Shown here piece after piece: positions 2,082-34,501 of a stretch of 64,000 nt of DNA. The position numbers and the translations under genes were made by a program. Under the pieces are notes generated by a model. The model was not told where the DNA came from and did no database searches. It saw only the letters and a list, made by a program, of their open reading frames with translations. Source of the DNA: Phyllosticta citribraziliensis (lineage: Eukaryota). The first letter of the stretch is position 1. Each line of letters starts with the position of its first letter. The DNA is taken from the NCBI RefSeq assembly GCF_038025025.1, contig NW_027117350.1, forward strand, positions 558,001 through 622,000, in the 5' to 3' direction.

Positions 2082-4139
<2,058 letters not shown>

Positions 4140-16392: not shown

Positions 16393-18389
16393 ATGGCCGC
16401 AAATTCGGGCGATCTATCGGCCTTGCTGGCGCAACTGGACCTCGACGATGGAAACGCCGACCACGACAAAATCCTCCAGGCCCTAAACGCCCATCTCGCA
16501 AAGTCCAAGAACGATGTCAACCTCCAGCACATGCGCGCCGTCGCGCTCCTCAAGCTCGACAGATTCGACGATGCCCTGCGGCAGTTTGAGCAAGGTGGAG
16601 ACAAGCTCAAGCAGAAGGCCCCACTGGAGTATGCGTATGCGCTTTACAAGACGGGCAAGCTGGAAGAGGCGTCAAAGGTGGCCAGTGGCAACAGCGGAAG
16701 AGGAATCAACCACGTCCTGGCACAGGCGACCTATCGCTCGGAGAATTTCCAGCTCGCTAGCGACGTATACCACAAGCTTGCATCGCGGCCGCAAGACGGG
16801 CAGGCTTTCGAAAGCCCCAATGACATCAACATCAACAGCCTTGCTGTCGACGCTCAACTTCACTGGCAATCGAATGGCGCACTTTCAAAAAAGAACAAGC
16901 TTGGGAGGGAGGACATGGAGGCCTTTGAGACTGCATACAATGCCGCATGCTTCAGCATTTCGAGAGGGGAGCTGGCGCAGGCCGAGGTGCTGTTGAAACG
17001 AGCCAGGGACCTCTGCTTGGCCTCTGAACTCAGCGAGGAGGACAAGAAGGCTGAGTTGATGCCCATTGTGATTCAGCAAATATACTTGTTGAATCAGCTG
17101 GGCAAGACAGAAGAGGCCGAGAGATTGGCCACCGAAGTGTCGATTCCAGAGTACGTCACTTGGTGATGTATTGATTCTTGGTGCTAACACTTGACAGGGT
17201 GCCGGATGCATCAACAAGACATATTGCGCAAATGAACGGATTTGCGTCGTCGGGCCAGACGGAAAACCCCTACCTGTCCAAACGCAAGCTGGATTCCACC
17301 TCCCACCTCCCCCGGAACGACAGGTTATTTGCCTTTCAGCAATCACTCATGGACCACAACAACTATATTTCTGAACTGCAGTCAAACAAGCATGAGGGTG
17401 TCGCACGCTCTACCTTGTCCAAGATTTCAACGCAGCCGACGTCCACGACCTCTTTTGCTACCAACGCCCTGTCCGTCTTGAATGCCGCTGCAAACACCAA
17501 GGGTCTGAGCGGCAGGTCAGCAATCAAGCAACTTCTTCCTCTAGTTCACAGAAGACCACGAGATGTCGGACTGGCTCTAACAGTCGTGCAACTTTACTGC
17601 CAAGAATCAAACTATGGTGCCGCAACACCACTACTGGAAAACTTTCTCAAGCGCCTTGAGGACTCGGCAGACTCCAGAGACCATGATGTGCGTTTCTCGC
17701 CGGGCCTCGTGGCCGCACAGGTTGCTCTCTATGCAAAGGCAGGCCGGAAAGCCGCTGTCCGCAGCGAGTTAGCCAAGGCCACAGACTATTGGCGCCAACA
17801 GACAAAGAACCCCCCGATATCCCTCTTGATGGCCGCAGGAATACACTTGATTGAGTCTCACCAGCCCGAGGATCTCGAAAAGGCAGGAGAAATTTTCTCC
17901 AGCCTCCTTGAAAATGACCCCAACGACCACGCCGCTGCCGCTGGTCTGGTTGCTGCCTTTGCCACTACACACCCGGAGAAGCTTTCGCCGGCCCAGCTGG
18001 ACAAGCTGACGCCTGTCCCCCGCCTCATTGCCGACGTCGATGTCGACGCGTTGGAATCCGCCGGCATCGCGACGCCGCCGTACCTCCAGCACCAAGCCGC
18101 CGCCAAGCGTCCGTCCCCTAAGGAAAAGGAACAACCGGCTAAGAAGAAGAAGGTCAGGCAGAGCCGGATACCCAAGGAATTTGACCCGAACAAAAAGGTG
18201 GACCCCGAGAGGTGGCTGCCGATGAAGGACAGGAGCTACTACCGTCCGAAGGGGAAGAAGGGCAAGAAGAGAGATGCAGGACTCACGCAAGGTGGGTTTG
18301 TCGAGGAGCCGAAGACGAATCAGGCCCAAGTGGCCACCGGCAGCGGTGGTGGCGGCCAAGGAAAGAAGAAGAAGAAGGGCAAGAAATAG
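16393..18389 (+). CDS. SRP72: Signal recognition particle subunit SRP72, one intron ~17152-17198
   Basis: TPR-like N-terminus (VALLKLDRFDDAL, YAYALYKTGKL, ETAYNAAC) and the C-terminal RNA-binding motif DPERWLPMKDRSYYRPKGKK. Confidence 0.93.
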
Positions 18390-26500: not shown

Positions 26501-28484
26501 CTCAATGTACTGAGGGAATATCGTGTCGACGTGACCTACAAACCGTTAGAGACAAAAGATGTTCAAAGGCGGCATGCAAACCTCTTTTCTTGTGGCGGGT
26601 TACATCGAACATTATCGCAGACGCGACCACATAGCTGATTTCGTCAAAAATTTGTTTGGCCTTTGCCTTGTCGCGCCACAATTCTGCCACCTGAAGAGCC
26701 AATTTGAGTATATTTCCTCCAAAGTTGAGCGGAATCGGGCTGTGCAAACGCGATGCCTGGACGAAGTCGAACGGTTTGTACAGCTCGCGGGCGAAGTGAT
26801 CAAACGCGCATTCCAAATAGCATTGGAGCTCATTCACGTCAAGGAGCATGCGCAAGTCCGCCCTCTGGTGACGAGCTGCCAAACAAGCTTCGCGGATGGC
26901 ATTGTGCAGAGTTCCCACCTGCCGCTGGATGAGCTGCGGCCGTCCTTGCCTTGGAATTCGGATGACCTAGATCTGTCAGACCTGCAGCAAGCGGACGCGC
27001 TCGCTCAGCATACCTGGATGGAGCCGTAGTAGCAGAGCATCAATTGTTCCACAGTCTCAATTTTTCTGTCGCGCTCAAGCCAGTACTGCGCCGCTTGTTT
27101 GAATGTGCGATTTTGGTCGACCGTCTTTGCCAGTGATTTCAGCATATCAGCCGTGGCTGCTTCTACTTCCCACAGTGATTCGTTTATGTTGTAGTCTTCA
27201 GCGTTCAGAGCGAGAATGGCGTGAGGTAGGACCGGCTGGTTCGACGAGGCTTCTAAAGCTGCAGCAGCCCAAGCCACGAGCTTCTCAAGCACATTTTCAA
27301 CGACGCTTCAGAATATCAGCAAATGAAACGTGCATAATGTGGCATGCGTACCGATGGTTTTTCAACACAAACACCACAACGTCTGAAAACGTGTAGAGTA
27401 GACGGGGATAGAGCTGGGCGACGGCAGCTTCTCTGCTGGAACAATCCCAAGTGATTTCCCTGGACGAAAGGGGAATTGCGTGATTGAATCCTCCTTGTGT
27501 GTCGTTGGCTTCGAGATTCATTTTCATCACGGCACTCACTGGCGGCCGCGAGCCTCCTGTCAGACCTTCACAGTCGGCGAAAACGATGGGGTCGTCCTGA
27601 TATTTTGTCGAGGGGTCGCAATACAGATGCACGTCTGATGATGTCGGGTCAAGAACGCCAGCTTCGCCTACGACGGGTGTAGGATGAACAGCAACATCGG
27701 CTTCGCCCGCTTGAAGATCAATAAGCAATTTGACGAGTGTGCTCTTCCCGTGGCCAGTTTCTCCAATGAAGGAAACCAGGCTAGGAGTCCGTTGGTCGTT
27801 GGATCCGCGGTCATCTTGGTTATGCGGGCGCGTGCTTCCAGGAGTGGTTGTCGATGCCTTTGTGCGTCTCATGAGGTCTGCAAACCTACCATAGTCCTGA
27901 AAAACAGCACGGCCAAACTCTGGACGCTGGATGCCGAACCAAGCAGTCTGAGTGTCGTCGAGATGCAACTTTTGCCTCAGCCGCGGATCTGTTGGCGGGT
28001 TCAAGGTCTTGATCACTTTCATGGCAATCTCTGCTCTTGTTCTCTCGTGCGGAATCCCTCCAAACGCGAGACGGCCCCTTTTGTGGGCAAGCTGTTGGCT
28101 CCAACATACTGGACAGAAGACAAAGTTGCATACGTTGCAGAAATCGAGGTCGCGGCTGGTTGCGTTGCAACTTTCACAACTGTCGCCGTAGTCATCTGAC
28201 CCTCCGTAACCAACGATTTGCTTGTCCGAGAATTCTTGGTTGTAGCGACTTGCTCCTCCTATAGATGGCGCTAAATCAACATCAAGCAGGCTACTCTGGC
28301 GTTGGATAGTCTTGAACGCTCCCCTGTTCAAAATCAGTGATGTTCAGGTTGTCCATTTCTGAGGCACTTGCACTTGCGGAGTGGGTCCTGCATTTTCGGG
28401 ACCATCGAAATCAATCAGATTGACCGTAATCCCGCTTGTATCCAGCTTATGCAGGTCTTTCCAAGGGTTTGGGTCGCCTGTCAT
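23530..28484 (-). CDS. Multidomain patatin-like phospholipase: B-box-like Zn finger + P-loop GTPase-like domain + RING finger + patatin; about 10 exons
   Basis: CESC..CNVC..CPVC..H; Walker A GETGHGKST; FADCEG; RING CFCC..LPCGHILCTSC..CPLC; patatin motifs LSLDGGGVRG, GTSTG and DGA (YLDGAIYHNNP). Exon frames are joined by introns. Confidence 0.85.
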
Positions 28485-30012
28485 ACTGGCGGATCGTTCT
28501 TCAGCACATGGGCAAACGACGCTGCTGAATTAACGAATGACGAACGCCGACTGGCGGTCAGGCTGGCAAGGAAAACACAGCATTATGTAGCAGAGCACCC
28601 GTTAACCAGAAAGCTGAGAGGTGGGGGCGTCAAGTGGGGGCGAATTGCAGTCTCCGCCTCAGGCAGAAGGTTGGTTGCGTCCACTGCAGCAATTGGCCTC
28701 TCGGGGCGACCTCGACCAGTCAAGACCAATGCACTCTCCTTTTTTATGGCAGGCGTCGGTGGTGGGATGTTGCATCGAGGGGGCCAAACCTCGCGGCGCA
28801 GCTTGATCGCCCCTTTTCTTCCAAGCCACGCGGGCACGCGGGCGGCTGACTGCTGTGGCACCCTTGGAGAACCGTTGCCGTGGTGTTCCAAAACAGAGCA
28901 CTGCCACTTGCGCCCCCGATTGAACGCGTTTGAAAATAGCACCGGCGAGTGTTGCGATATTCTGACTGCCGCAAGATCCATGGCCCGGGAGAAATCGGTA
29001 GAGAGTTCGAAGGTTGCTGTACCTGCGGGAGGCTGAATGGAACAGGTTCGTGGATTCAGGTGTCTTTGGATCGATGCACACAGATACGTCAGCTGAAAAG
29101 ACGCGTGGTCTTCGAGCATACTGGAGATTATTCAGCCTGTAGGGTGGTGTTATATTGCATGTGAAAGCGAATCTTGCATCGTGGCATGGATAGCCTTGGA
29201 GGCTGATTCCAAATTGACGAGGCTCGACTGTGATGGATGGACCTAGAGAACGGCGAGGAAGCTGATGGGCACTCTCTTTTCTCTCTCATCCTACTACCGC
29301 ACTCCAGCAATGGTCTGGAGTGAATAATGGCTCCGTTGCTGTGTCCAGACGTTGATGGGCCATTGCCCTTTCTGGAGCCGCGTTGGATGGCCGCGTTCGA
29401 ATCGTGGGCGACGCGTCCCGCACACAACAAATCCGTCATCCAGCTGTCTGGTCGCTGTGCCCCAACGCCGGGGCTCGTGGGCTTCGAGCTGCTCGAACAA
29501 GATGATGCTGGAAGCTCCTTCGGAGACCACGAATCGGTGACATTCCAGCGGGGGCATCCAGGCTGTCCTAAGCGAGCATCATATCCCCACATTGCAAACT
29601 AACTTCGGCACGATCCTTCTGCCCCTTGACCGAACAAACCGTCTTCAGCATCTCTTGTTGCTTCTCGAATGCCATCGGCGCGCGACCGCGGTGTCGATTT
29701 CTGGTGTGGGCGAAACGGATTCCGACGAACGAGCTCCACGAAACGATGCGAAGAAACTTCCCGAGCGGCCTGATGCCACGACCACTCCTGGGTGGAAGCC
29801 GTGACAATAACGGACCAAGGCGCTGAGGCACGGCACATTCGAGCGATGTTGGTGCATGGCACTGCCAGCAGGGACGACAAAGGAGGGTGGACGTTGGGTT
29901 TGGGTTGCTGGTTGTGGGCGCAAGCGGTAGGCGCGATGGGCAGGCGCCATGAGTCCGGCTGCGCTGCGCCCACACTGGCATTTGTGGTGGTGGGGATTGG
30001 CGGGGCCCCCAT

Positions 30013-30020
30013 TATATATA
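30013..30020 (+). promoter_or_regulatory. TATA box of the U6 gene
   Basis: TATATATA about 30 nt upstream of the predicted U6 start. An internal A-box-like TGGTCAATTTG (TRGYNNANNNG) lies at 30057-30067. Confidence 0.7.
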
Positions 30021-30043
30021 TTCAATAAACGGGCTAAGCTTTC

Positions 30044-30225
30044 GCCTTCGGGCATTTGGTCAATTTGAAACGATACAGAGAAGATTAGCATGGCCCCTGC
30101 ACTAAGGATGACACGGTAAGCCTTCCACAACTCCAACATATCCCCAAATCCAACTATTCTACAACAACCAAAAGACAACCACTAACTCTCTATGTAGCTA
30201 CAGTAAAGAAAGCTACAAGTTTTTT
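30044..30225 (+). ncRNA. U6: U6 spliceosomal snRNA with an mRNA-type intron (30116-30197)
   Basis: 5' GCC-TTCG-GGC hairpin; invariant GATACAGAGAAGATTAGCATGGCCCCTGCACTAAGGATGACACG core; GTAAGC...ACTAAC...TAG intron; 3' exon ends in an oligo-T Pol III terminator. Confidence 0.95.
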
Positions 30226-33175
30226 ATCTTTTTGGCCGTCCGTTGCTCTCGAAAGGCAGCGGGCAGGCTTTTTGCTGAGCCTGCGGAGCGGTAGGCTGCG
30301 GGGAAGCGAAATTCGGGGCCTCTCGCTTACAAAGCCACAGGGCGATGTGATAGAGGACCAAAGTTAGCACCAGAGTAGACTTGAGGATGCCAAAATTGCC
30401 AAAGAGTGCTCAGCCTGGGTCTGCAATTTTGTGCATGACCAAAAATGGTGCACATCCTGTGGTTCGACTTGGGTTTATAGTTTACGACTAGTTTACGACT
30501 TAGTAACCACAGCCCCAGGCGGCACGCATCGCTTAAAACTGTTGTCGCGTGTTCGAATCTTGTTTGTGGCAAGAGCGGTAGATACCAACCCAGAAATTTA
30601 CCTATCGTCACCACGCTGCTGCAGTAGACTTATGAAAATTAATCTCAAGACTGTTATTTTACGCTTGCGATATTCGCTTAGTGGGAGGATGGCCAGGAGG
30701 GCCTACGAAAGGAAGGAGCCGAACGGAAAACCTGCTGCGCGTCGGCTACCAAAAACTCGGCCGCTCACTCCCTAGGCAGGTCCCGAGCGAAGAATGGAAC
30801 CGCTTCGGCCCGGCATGTTGCTCCAACCGCACGGGCATCCGCGACCCGACCCCAGACGTCAACATGCCCCACCCCGTCTTCTCCTCCAGTCTTCTTCAAC
30901 GCGACCCGCATGCTACCATGTCGTTCGCAATGGATTCGAATCAGCCAAACTGGGCAGCTCGGTCTGTTTGGTGTCAGGGCAATGGCGTGCTCTTCTCCGC
31001 TCTCAGAGGTCAACCTTGCCAATGATCCATCCACGCTGATGAGCGAGGACTGCGCGCAGAAAGCTTCCTCGAACGTGGTCGGTCTACCGGCTTCTGCCAG
31101 CAACTCGGGGCGCGACGGCGGTGCCTTCCTGGATGGCGTTGCCAACGAGACTTGGACGGGTGCTGATCTCGCAGAAACCTCCAACCTAGCAACCACGAAT
31201 CGTCAACTCCCAACAGCAGTGCAAGGGTCAAAGTTGACGCTCACACGATTCGCAATGCTCCCCGTCTGCTCGGCCTTGGACATATCGTACCGTCTTGAAT
31301 GCTGGAGTGCTTCGTGGCTTTTATTGGGGATGCAAAAACTCATTTGAAGGACAGGATGCTCATGCCACACAGTCTGCTCGAAGGGTTTGCAGCTATCTCG
31401 GTCCAGGGCCTGGCGGCGTCATTCTGACATCTCCTGAAGACGTCAGGCCGGAGAGAAAAAAGAAACCTCGCTTTCAGGCGAGTCTGCCACGGTGACCAGG
31501 CCAAGTGAGCACCAGGGAAACTCCTTTGACCGGGAGACAGTCTCACTCGATCCACAAGGTGTCACGGCGGGCACAACGCCTCGGACCCGAACATACTCGA
31601 CTGTGTCTTCTTGCTTGCTGGAGCCGAAAAATCTACCTGCTCCGCCGTTCCACAATCTGCATGGTATGCTCAAAACCACAGAGCCAAGACAACAGTGACT
31701 TGCCCAAATAGCGTGGCAAACGACGTGCTGAACGCGATGCGATGTCGCGAAGCCTTTGGCCTTTTGGCTACTGACCATTCGCACGGAACATCCGTCGGTG
31801 GCAGACTACGCTCAGCGCATAACCGGAACCCTCACCCGTTTTTCTGGTCGTGGAAACTCCATGCCCTTTGGAATACCAGCGGACAATCCAAATGCAAAAG
31901 AGCGGCTTAAAAGGCACCCCCATCTGCTCGAAGCGGTTAGATTCAGGGTTGAAGACTTGGCCGCGCCAGTGCTCTGGAACAGAATCATCCACGGTTGCTT
32001 CTCAAGACCTCATTCTAGGTTGTGGTCGAGAGAAAGTCGAGCTTTGGCGCTAATCCTTCGAGAATAGCGCAAGCGAAGCCGGCGCAGGCACCAGTCACGG
32101 CGTGCGCGAGGTGCGAGGTCCGAGGTGCGAGGTGCGAGAGTTCGCACGAATACTTGCTGGAGATGGTTGTAGAGCTTGCTCAGGCGCTCATGATATGGAG
32201 AAGCCAAAATATTGCAGGTACGTGTTGTTTTGTCAGACGTGGGACTAATGACTCTGCTTCTCCCCTGCGACGCTCGAATGCTTCCTGGCAGTCGTCCGTA
32301 TCTTGGAGTCCACGTTTCTTCCAGTACTGCTCCCAACTTTGCCACCAGGATTCTGTCTCTCAACCACTAAACCCGTGAAATCGTCGGCGCCATTCTCCTC
32401 CAGCACTCCACTCTGCTCACTCTGCCCCACTCCTTCCTCTGCCCTCTGTCCTCCGCCTTCCGCCCTCCGCCCTGCAACCTCCACCTTCTACCACCACACT
32501 TTCCACAGTGGCCGCCGCCCAGGTCATTCACAGCCCAGATCATACGCAGACTTCATCAGGTCTGCACTCAATTACTAGCTCGCACCCTCAAGCCTACCCG
32601 TGTCACCGTCGTCAGATCTTCGCCCGCGGTCCACTTCAACTGCAACATCAGCCCTTGGCTCGAAAATTTGAGCCCCGCTATCGACCACGGCTTTTCAGGT
32701 GAGCCAGCTGTGTATACCACTCTCAACCCGTCGCTCGCCGCCCTCCGTATGTACTGACCCATCGAATTTCAGCAGTGTGTTCTGCTCCTGATGCAGCGAT
32801 ACTCCCGCTTCACTTCACATTGAACATCAGGACCTTGGTTTGCGCCTGCAGCTTGAAACTTCAGCAGATCAATCAGCCTCACACGTCCCAAAGTTCACTC
32901 TTTGTGGGTGAGGTGGCTGTATTTACCATTGAGCCTCATAGGTATGCACAACGCGATGGTCGCCAACGACGGGTCTTCTAACCTGATCGGGTAGGTTTGG
33001 ACGGTGATTCGCCAATCAGAACCGAAGACCATTCGACCGCACGGGCCAGCCCTGGTATTCCATACTCCCTCAAACTGCCATCTTACTCCTCGCTCCGTCC
33101 CTCAATCGCTCGTCCGAACATCCAACAATCCACTAAGGCTTCCGATCACACCAGCCGCCAAGACCAGGAGCCAAC

Positions 33176-34501
33176 ATGGCTGAATCTGACGCTTCTGCAC
33201 CTGCTGCTGCGCAGACCAAAAAGCGTAGTGTATGTTCGGCCTGTCGCCTGCACCTCGTGTAAACTTAATGCTGATTGTATGTCAGGGCGATGTCCTCGTC
33301 AAAAAATCTAAACGCGTCAAGAAAGAGAGCGGCCAGAAAGAGAGTGACGAGAAAGAGCGTGTCAAGACAGAGAGAAAAGAGGTATGCGAGCGGAGAGCTC
33401 CTTCAAATAACGTTTCAACTGACTTGACGCAACAGGCCGGCACCTCCAAAACCACACCATCTAAAGGAAAACATCACGATTCTGTGGTGAGTTTCGATGT
33501 CAAAGCTTTCTTTGAAGAGCACAATGAAGATTGGCAGCGAAAGCATGAAGATGTGAGTGGGGATACTGCTTTTCATCGCCTGCTCGACATTATGTGGATG
33601 TGTACCCGAAACACAAATATTGCTAACCTGCTCTATGCAGTGGGATGGTCAAAAACGCTTAAACATACTGCTTGAAGCGGCCCGTCAGCACCATGCTGTA
33701 CAAGTTCGGGAACAGATCCAGCGCGACATGAAGGTGATTGAGAAAGCCAGCGATGCTTCTCGTCGCCTCGAGACAAATATCCAAGCCTTGAACATCCAAC
33801 ACGAGACGATTGCACTCAGCGCAAAGGTTTACGACGCCATGTCGATCGAATTCGCTTGGCAGCTCCCGGATATCGCTCAATCGGAGGAAATGCTGAAATC
33901 TGTCTGGTGTTGCACCAACCACTACGAGATTGAAGAGGAGCTTCCCGCCGTCGTAGAGAAGTTTTGGTCCCTTCTCAAGGAAAGCTCGACCTTGAAAATC
34001 ATGGCAAAGATGAGAGCGGAAGCAGAAAAACGACAGTTGAAGCTGGAGCAACAGCAGCAGGAGCTCATTGACCGCACCCACTACTCAAACACAGACTACG
34101 AGCTTTACCGTGCCATCTGCAAGGTGGAGGACGGCTTTCCCAACAAGGAAGCGAGCTTTCGCAAGCTGATAGATCCCGATCCGGAGGATGAGTGTTCGGA
34201 GGAGGATTATGAGGTGGCCAATGTCTTGACAATCATCCGACGCATCTGGCTTGGTCAGGATTCACAATTTGGCGTCCAACATCTCCTCCACGCGGTCAAG
34301 AACATGTTCGAGGACCGCAACAGGATGGTGGAAGCAATGGGTTCCGACTTGCCTTTCCGCCTTGGACAGCCGGTGGAGCCTCCGCCAAAAGTGAAGGAGG
34401 AGGACAAATCTTGTGACGAAGTGCGCAGCACACATCAACGAGACAAGATGGCGATGAGTTCAGACAGCAGGCGAACGGCCACAGGTGTATGCCAGGGTTG
34501 A
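33176..34501 (+). CDS. Hypothetical multi-exon protein with coiled-coil-like segments; 3' end uncertain
   Basis: ATG in a CCAACATGG context; GT-AG introns with branch points; long ORF 33557-34501 rich in E/K/Q. No family recognised. Confidence 0.55.

Follow-up and report, generated by a model that had tools for sequence, protein, structure and literature searches.

The locus described here is a U6 snRNA gene on the forward strand at 30044..30225 of a 64,000-nucleotide (64-kb) stretch of DNA, the whole of which we refer to as the window. The Rfam covariance model for U6 (RF00026) matches the window at 30044-30142 (+) with a score of 71.8 bits, against a gathering score of 44, and an E-value of 3.3e-16, and the same match is recovered when 501 bases around the locus are rescanned. 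RF00026 is the sole Rfam family found at gathering level within the window, where it identifies one U6 copy. An earlier note on this DNA had placed a U6 gene at these coordinates, an assignment that is borne out both by the score and by the intact core of the RNA. All positions given in the note, among them those for the end of the core (30115), ACTAAC, TAG and CAG, agree with the sequence. The elements of the locus are listed below; the TATA-like box, the splice signals, exon 2 and the terminator were read directly from the sequence, with the length also taken into account for exon 2.

30013..30022, + strand: TATA-like box TATATATATT, at about -31 to -22 relative to the start of U6
30044..30115, + strand: U6 exon 1, 72 nt, from the RF00026 alignment; contains the 5' stem-loop, ACAGAGA box, AGC triad and internal stem-loop (ISL)
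30116..30197, + strand: predicted spliceosomal intron, 82 nt, GT...AG, from sequence signals and composition
30116..30121, + strand: 5' splice site GTAAGC
30181..30186, + strand: branch site ACTAAC, branch A at 30185
30195..30197, + strand: 3' splice site TAG, preferred; first AG past the branch point, branch A to acceptor 12 nt
30201..30203, + strand: 3' splice site CAG, alternative; branch A to acceptor 18 nt
30198..30225, + strand: U6 exon 2, 28 nt, 3' tail with AAAGAAAG motif and T6 end
30220-30225, + strand: T6 Pol III terminator
30229..30273, + strand: downstream region with T5 (30229-33), GC-rich hairpin (30234-30269) and T5 (30269-73)

We consider it probable that the locus functions as a U6 gene in a Phyllosticta-like Dothideomycete, and that the intron at 30116-30197 is spliced out at the TAG. 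Pol III would initiate near 30044, some 30 nt past the TATA-like box, would pass through exon 1 and the terminator-free 82-nt intron, and would halt in the T6 run at 30220-30225 to give a precursor of about 182 nt. The spliceosome would then excise 30116-30197, with GUAAGC as 5' splice site, the A of ACUAAC as branch nucleotide and the nearest AG beyond it (UAG, 30197) as acceptor, and the mature U6 would be about 100 nt long.

The U6 core, 3' tail and flanking elements

The U6 core runs uninterrupted from 30044 to the last base (30115) of ...GACACG. Positions 1-78 of the RF00026 model are aligned with high posterior probability and are near-identical to the consensus, and the ACAGAGA box, AGC triad and ISL are all present and contiguous. 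The ISL also forms in the minimum free energy (MFE) fold of the 100-nt spliced U6. The 5' stem-loop is short (3 bp and UUCG), and we counted a stem of just 3 bp against the gene being a working one. The model has 105 positions, 27 of which come after ACACg. Since cmscan aligns globally, these last 27 positions are forced onto the first 27 bases of the intron, and the end coordinate of 30142 is thus an artefact and no real boundary. Rfam-based annotation would in the same way assign wrong end coordinates to this gene and miss its 3' exon.

The 28-nt tail provided by exon 2, which includes a AAAGAAAGCU stretch, compares with the 27 model positions that follow ACACg, and the product left by removal of 30116-30197 has a length of 72 + 28 = 100 nt, compared with the 105 positions of the model. 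Only if 30116-30197 is removed does the RNA have a tail of the expected length, about 27 nt, with a U-tract at its 3' end; in the unspliced sequence the nearest run of four or more T lies 105 nt past the core. Exon 2 alone gave no separate Rfam match at E-values up to 10, which we also counted against a working gene.

No run of four or more T occurs between 30044 and 30219. Runs of five or more T are then found at 30220-25, 30229-33 and 30269-73, that is, three within 54 nt, compared with 52 on the whole forward strand of the window. The hairpin that follows the U6 terminator comprises 14 bp and is GC-rich, with a fold of -35 kcal/mol (z -2.31; equaled by 5 of 200 shuffles). Together with the T5 runs this hairpin may act as a reserve terminator for Pol III, or may have arisen by chance. 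The region 30226-30300 weakly resembles Rfam models of bacterial terminator-type sRNAs, at an E-value of 0.049 that falls below gathering level.

Upstream of the gene, the position of the TATA-like box is consistent with that of the upstream TATA of fungal U6 genes, as outlined in the review of Didychuk et al. (2018). Matches to the B-box consensus with at most one mismatch number 12 in the window against 18 expected; at this stringency there are none on the forward strand near the U6 gene and none inside 30116-30197. This lack of a B-box signal above chance was likewise counted against a working gene. The same review states that fungal U6 promoters may be without identifiable boxes (Didychuk et al. 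2018). A B-box-like sequence with two mismatches, GGTTCGACTTG, is present at 30461-30471, 236 nt past the terminator; we draw no claim from it. The U6 gene is located in a stretch of several kb (28400-33200) bordered by two long open reading frames, at 27297-28343 (-) and 33557-34501 (+), in which a search for Pfam families found none.

The intron and its relation to the introns of the host

The homology to U6 breaks off exactly at a GT (30116). We scanned both strands of the window (127,500 positions) for a composite signal made up of GTRNGY, a CTRAY 25-150 nt downstream, a YAG 6-30 nt after the branch A and, as the last condition, a run of five or more T 15-40 nt after the AG. The complete signal occurs at one position of the 127,500, and this position is 30116, where the U6 homology ends. 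If the terminator is left out, the first three elements are found in the required arrangement at 63 positions. The earlier note had read the locus as a U6 gene interrupted by a spliceosomal intron, and the unique arrangement within the window of the GT, branch site, YAG, tail and T6 upholds that reading. We regard the presence of a spliceosomal intron in this U6 gene as very probable, and infer from these signals that the transcript is spliced.

The base composition of the intron is A32 C28 T17 G5, with a longest T run of 2, so that on recomputation its description as an A/C-rich, 82-nt sequence without a run of more than two T proves correct. The note had also seen in this composition the avoidance of premature termination expected of a Pol III transcript. 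Here the observation of short T runs stands, but it has no statistical weight, since between 39 and 44% of the 82-nt segments in this DNA likewise have no T run longer than 2. The short T runs were accordingly discarded as evidence, and the ordinary introns of the host are themselves low in T (19-36%). At a length of 176 nt, segments without a run of four or more T make up 56-62% of this DNA. A terminator-free intron is a necessary condition for a Pol III transcript and nothing beyond that, and the intron at 30116-30197 is terminator-free.

The intron is predicted to be unstructured (MFE -0.5 kcal/mol, z 0.45). A search for a similar copy elsewhere in the 64-kb window found none, and the idea that it was copied from another intron of the window was rejected. 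We also considered the intron as a possible carrier of another RNA and rejected this idea, as there is no Rfam match of note at E-values up to 10 and no structure.

For comparison, a sample of five host introns was mapped by aligning the CTP synthase and SRP72 proteins back onto the window. The CTP synthase fragment at 2082-3206 (-) is 97% identical to the Phyllosticta citriasiana and P. citricarpa proteins, and that of SRP72 (17175-18389) shares 92% identity with the P. paracitricarpa protein and 85% with that of P. capitalensis. These identities assign the window to a Phyllosticta-like fungus (Botryosphaeriales, Dothideomycetes). When the mapped intron boundaries are applied, the CTP synthase model agrees with P0001 at 80 of 80 N-terminal residues. 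The five introns are as follows.

4114-4063, - strand: CTP synthase intron 1, 52 nt, GCAAGT, TCTAAC, branch A to acceptor 10 nt, CAG
4029-3963, - strand: CTP synthase intron 2, 67 nt, GTGCGA, GCTGAC, branch A to acceptor 16 nt, AAG
3921-3853, - strand: CTP synthase intron 3, 69 nt, ATATGT, GCTGAC, branch A to acceptor 12 nt, CAC
3790-3739, - strand: CTP synthase intron 4, 52 nt, GTATGC, GCTGAC, branch A to acceptor 12 nt, AAG
17151-17197: SRP72 intron, 47 nt, GTACGT, GCTAAC, branch A to acceptor 10 nt, CAG

These host introns (n=5) are 47-69 nt long and contain 19-36% T; they have CTRAC branch sites, and their acceptors lie 10-16 nt from the branch A. The U6 intron, with its GTAAGC, ACTAAC and 12 nt to the TAG, matches them in signals and spacing. 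At 82 nt it is longer than the 47-69 nt of the host introns, and it is also G-poor and A-rich, with 6% G and 39% A; the four introns of the CTP synthase gene have 19-30% G and 17-20% A. Its greater length and lower G content relative to the mapped introns were counted against a working U6 gene. A G-poor, unstructured intron might have been selected so as not to pair with U6 itself; the host sample is too small for the G-poverty to be called selection.

Two of the CTP synthase introns have unusual boundaries. Intron 3 (3853-3921, -) is apparently an AT-AC intron (ATATGT...GCTGAC...12 nt...CAC, 69 nt) with a U2-type branch site and no U12-type 5' motif. The conserved CTP synthase exon junction, and with it the agreement with P0001 in 80 of 80 residues, is obtained with these boundaries alone; in-frame read-through of the intron hits a stop, and the sequence from the branch site to the exon is devoid of AG. 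Intron 1 (4063-4114, -) is a GC-AG intron (GCAAGT...TCTAAC...CAG, 52 nt).

The acceptor, the splice junction and the state of the gene

Joining of the exons at the TAG recreates the ACACG-C of the Rfam consensus. In the MFE fold of the resulting 100-nt product U43-A75, A44-U74, G45-C73 and C46-G72 pair across the junction and so extend the ISL. These junction-spanning pairs place the splice junction directly opposite the AGC triad, and the predicted fold thus has the junction G|C at the 3' base of the ISL, facing the triad in mature U6. The insertion had been described earlier as lying just 3' of the ISL, which is accurate, since that element ends one base before the site. In the predicted fold the site directly faces the G-C step of the AGC triad. 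The intron follows the G next to the ISL, which we take to correspond to G80/C81 of human U6 and G86/U87 of yeast U6. In the numbering of yeast U6 the ISL comprises nt 63-84 and helix II nt 93-102, as given in the review of Didychuk et al. (2018).

The same gene and intron could in principle be spliced at the CAG ending at 30203, with an 88-nt intron, a 94-nt U6 and a 22-nt tail. This CAG is a good YAG located 6 nt beyond the TAG, and its distance of 18 nt from the branch A is near to the 16 nt of one host intron. However, past the branch point the TAG is the first AG to be encountered, and its distance of 12 nt lies within the host range of 10-16 nt. In addition, splicing at the CAG would remove the C found next to ACACG in the Rfam consensus, would do away with the additional base pairs facing the AGC triad, and would leave a tail 5 nt shorter than that of the RF00026 model. 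We consequently think use of the CAG unlikely, and clearly favor the TAG as the acceptor.

A second alternative is that this U6 copy is silent or its transcript stays unspliced, making it either a pseudogene or a spare paralogue, with U6 supplied by an intronless copy elsewhere. A survey of 145 fungal genomes gave a mean of 2.3 U6 genes each (Canzler, Stadler and Hertel 2016, RNA Biol 13:119, as summarized in the review literature), and the review of Didychuk et al. (2018) states that experimental validation of the intron-bearing fungal copies is still required. The lack of a B-box above chance at the locus would also fit a silent copy. Against this reading, the core is intact, every conserved element included, and exceeds the gathering score by 28 bits, the TATA-like box is at the right distance upstream, and the splice signals and terminator are both intact and uniquely arranged. 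Decay of the copy would be expected to have cost it at least some of these features, and we regard a silent or unspliced copy as quite unlikely. That a truncated U6 fragment has come to lie beside unrelated sequence that is intron-like by chance is already very unlikely: exon 2 is indeed short, weakly conserved and devoid of an Rfam match of its own, but the composite signal falls precisely at the homology break, and the tail length and terminator fit U6.

Known U6 introns and the origin of the intron

Introns in U6 genes have been known since 1989 and are found in many fungi, and the working, TAG-spliced gene that we favor for the Phyllosticta locus is one more example. The occurrence of such genes in Schizosaccharomyces and other fungi, and their link to reverse splicing, had been mentioned in the earlier note; U6 introns of S. 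pombe and many other fungi, and the reverse-splicing model, are also covered by Didychuk et al. (2018). That review reports, from the survey of Canzler et al. (2016), that many fungal species have unrelated U6 introns with canonical signals, up to four per gene, and that these introns are spread throughout U6 with a concentration near the ISL and the ACAGA box. As far as the survey is summarized there, the Phyllosticta intron resembles the surveyed ones in its canonical splice signals, its location in a Pol III U6 gene and its insertion close to the ISL, and the locus differs from genes with up to four introns in having a single one. Fungal U6 genes are elsewhere described as those that "often have multiple introns".

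The best-known U6 intron for comparison is that of S. pombe (Tani and Ohshima 1989, as cited by Didychuk et al. 2018), which lies beside the AGC triad and contains a B box. As summarized in that review, S. pombe U6 likewise has a single spliceosomal intron next to the catalytic core, which has been explained by reverse splicing and reverse transcription. However, the S. pombe intron is located on the 5' side of the ISL, whereas the Phyllosticta intron is on the 3' side, opposite the triad in the predicted fold. The two also differ in that the S. pombe intron bears a B box and the intron at 30116-30197 has none with up to one mismatch.

Among other ascomycetes, U6 of A. fumigatus was measured at 105 nt by northern blot, and the available text of the report mentions no intron (Jöchl 2008). 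Introns are also common in a second small structured RNA gene: those of the fungal U3 snoRNA are spliceosomal, are frequent in Pezizomycotina and have a mean length of 92 nt (Canzler et al. 2017, PMC5832005). The U3 introns belong to a different RNA from the intron described here, and are clustered in the U3 5' stem-loop (PMC5832005). The U6 genes of relatives were sought with a 15-base pattern taken from near the 5' end of the gene, which returned at least 117 metagenome loci and 120 viral-contig loci; the pattern was too short for the metagenome collection, and among the 237 metagenome and viral loci listed local blastn found no U6-like sequence beyond the seed.

The gene for the catalytic RNA of the spliceosome would, at this locus, have to be spliced itself, a situation classically invoked in favor of reverse splicing at the active site. 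In the model outlined by Didychuk et al. (2018) and credited there to Brow and Guthrie (1989) and Tani and Ohshima (1991), U6 introns originate by reverse or aberrant splicing at the catalytic center, followed by reverse transcription and recombination. The site of the Phyllosticta intron at the 3' base of the ISL is compatible with this model, and we suggest that the intron may have arisen in this way. A bolder reading, possible but doubtful, is that it represents an independent and previously uncatalogued gain in the Botryosphaeriales, at a site that is the mirror image of the S. pombe site across the same helix. Fungal U6 intron positions are listed in the survey of Canzler et al. (2016); among the papers covered by our literature search, none lists those of Pezizomycotina. 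An independent gain, if real, would provide a further instance in support of reverse splicing into U6 at the catalytic center, and a position that was both new and independently acquired would modestly strengthen the case for a clustering of insertion sites around the catalytic helix.

An intron in this gene also bears on the practical use of its promoter. The U6 promoter of Trichoderma reesei has been used "with 1st intron" for guide-RNA expression. Like the Phyllosticta gene, T. reesei U6 is an intron-containing gene of a filamentous ascomycete (Pezizomycotina), in that case evidently with more than one intron. Users expressing guide RNAs from the promoter described here would need to account for the intron.
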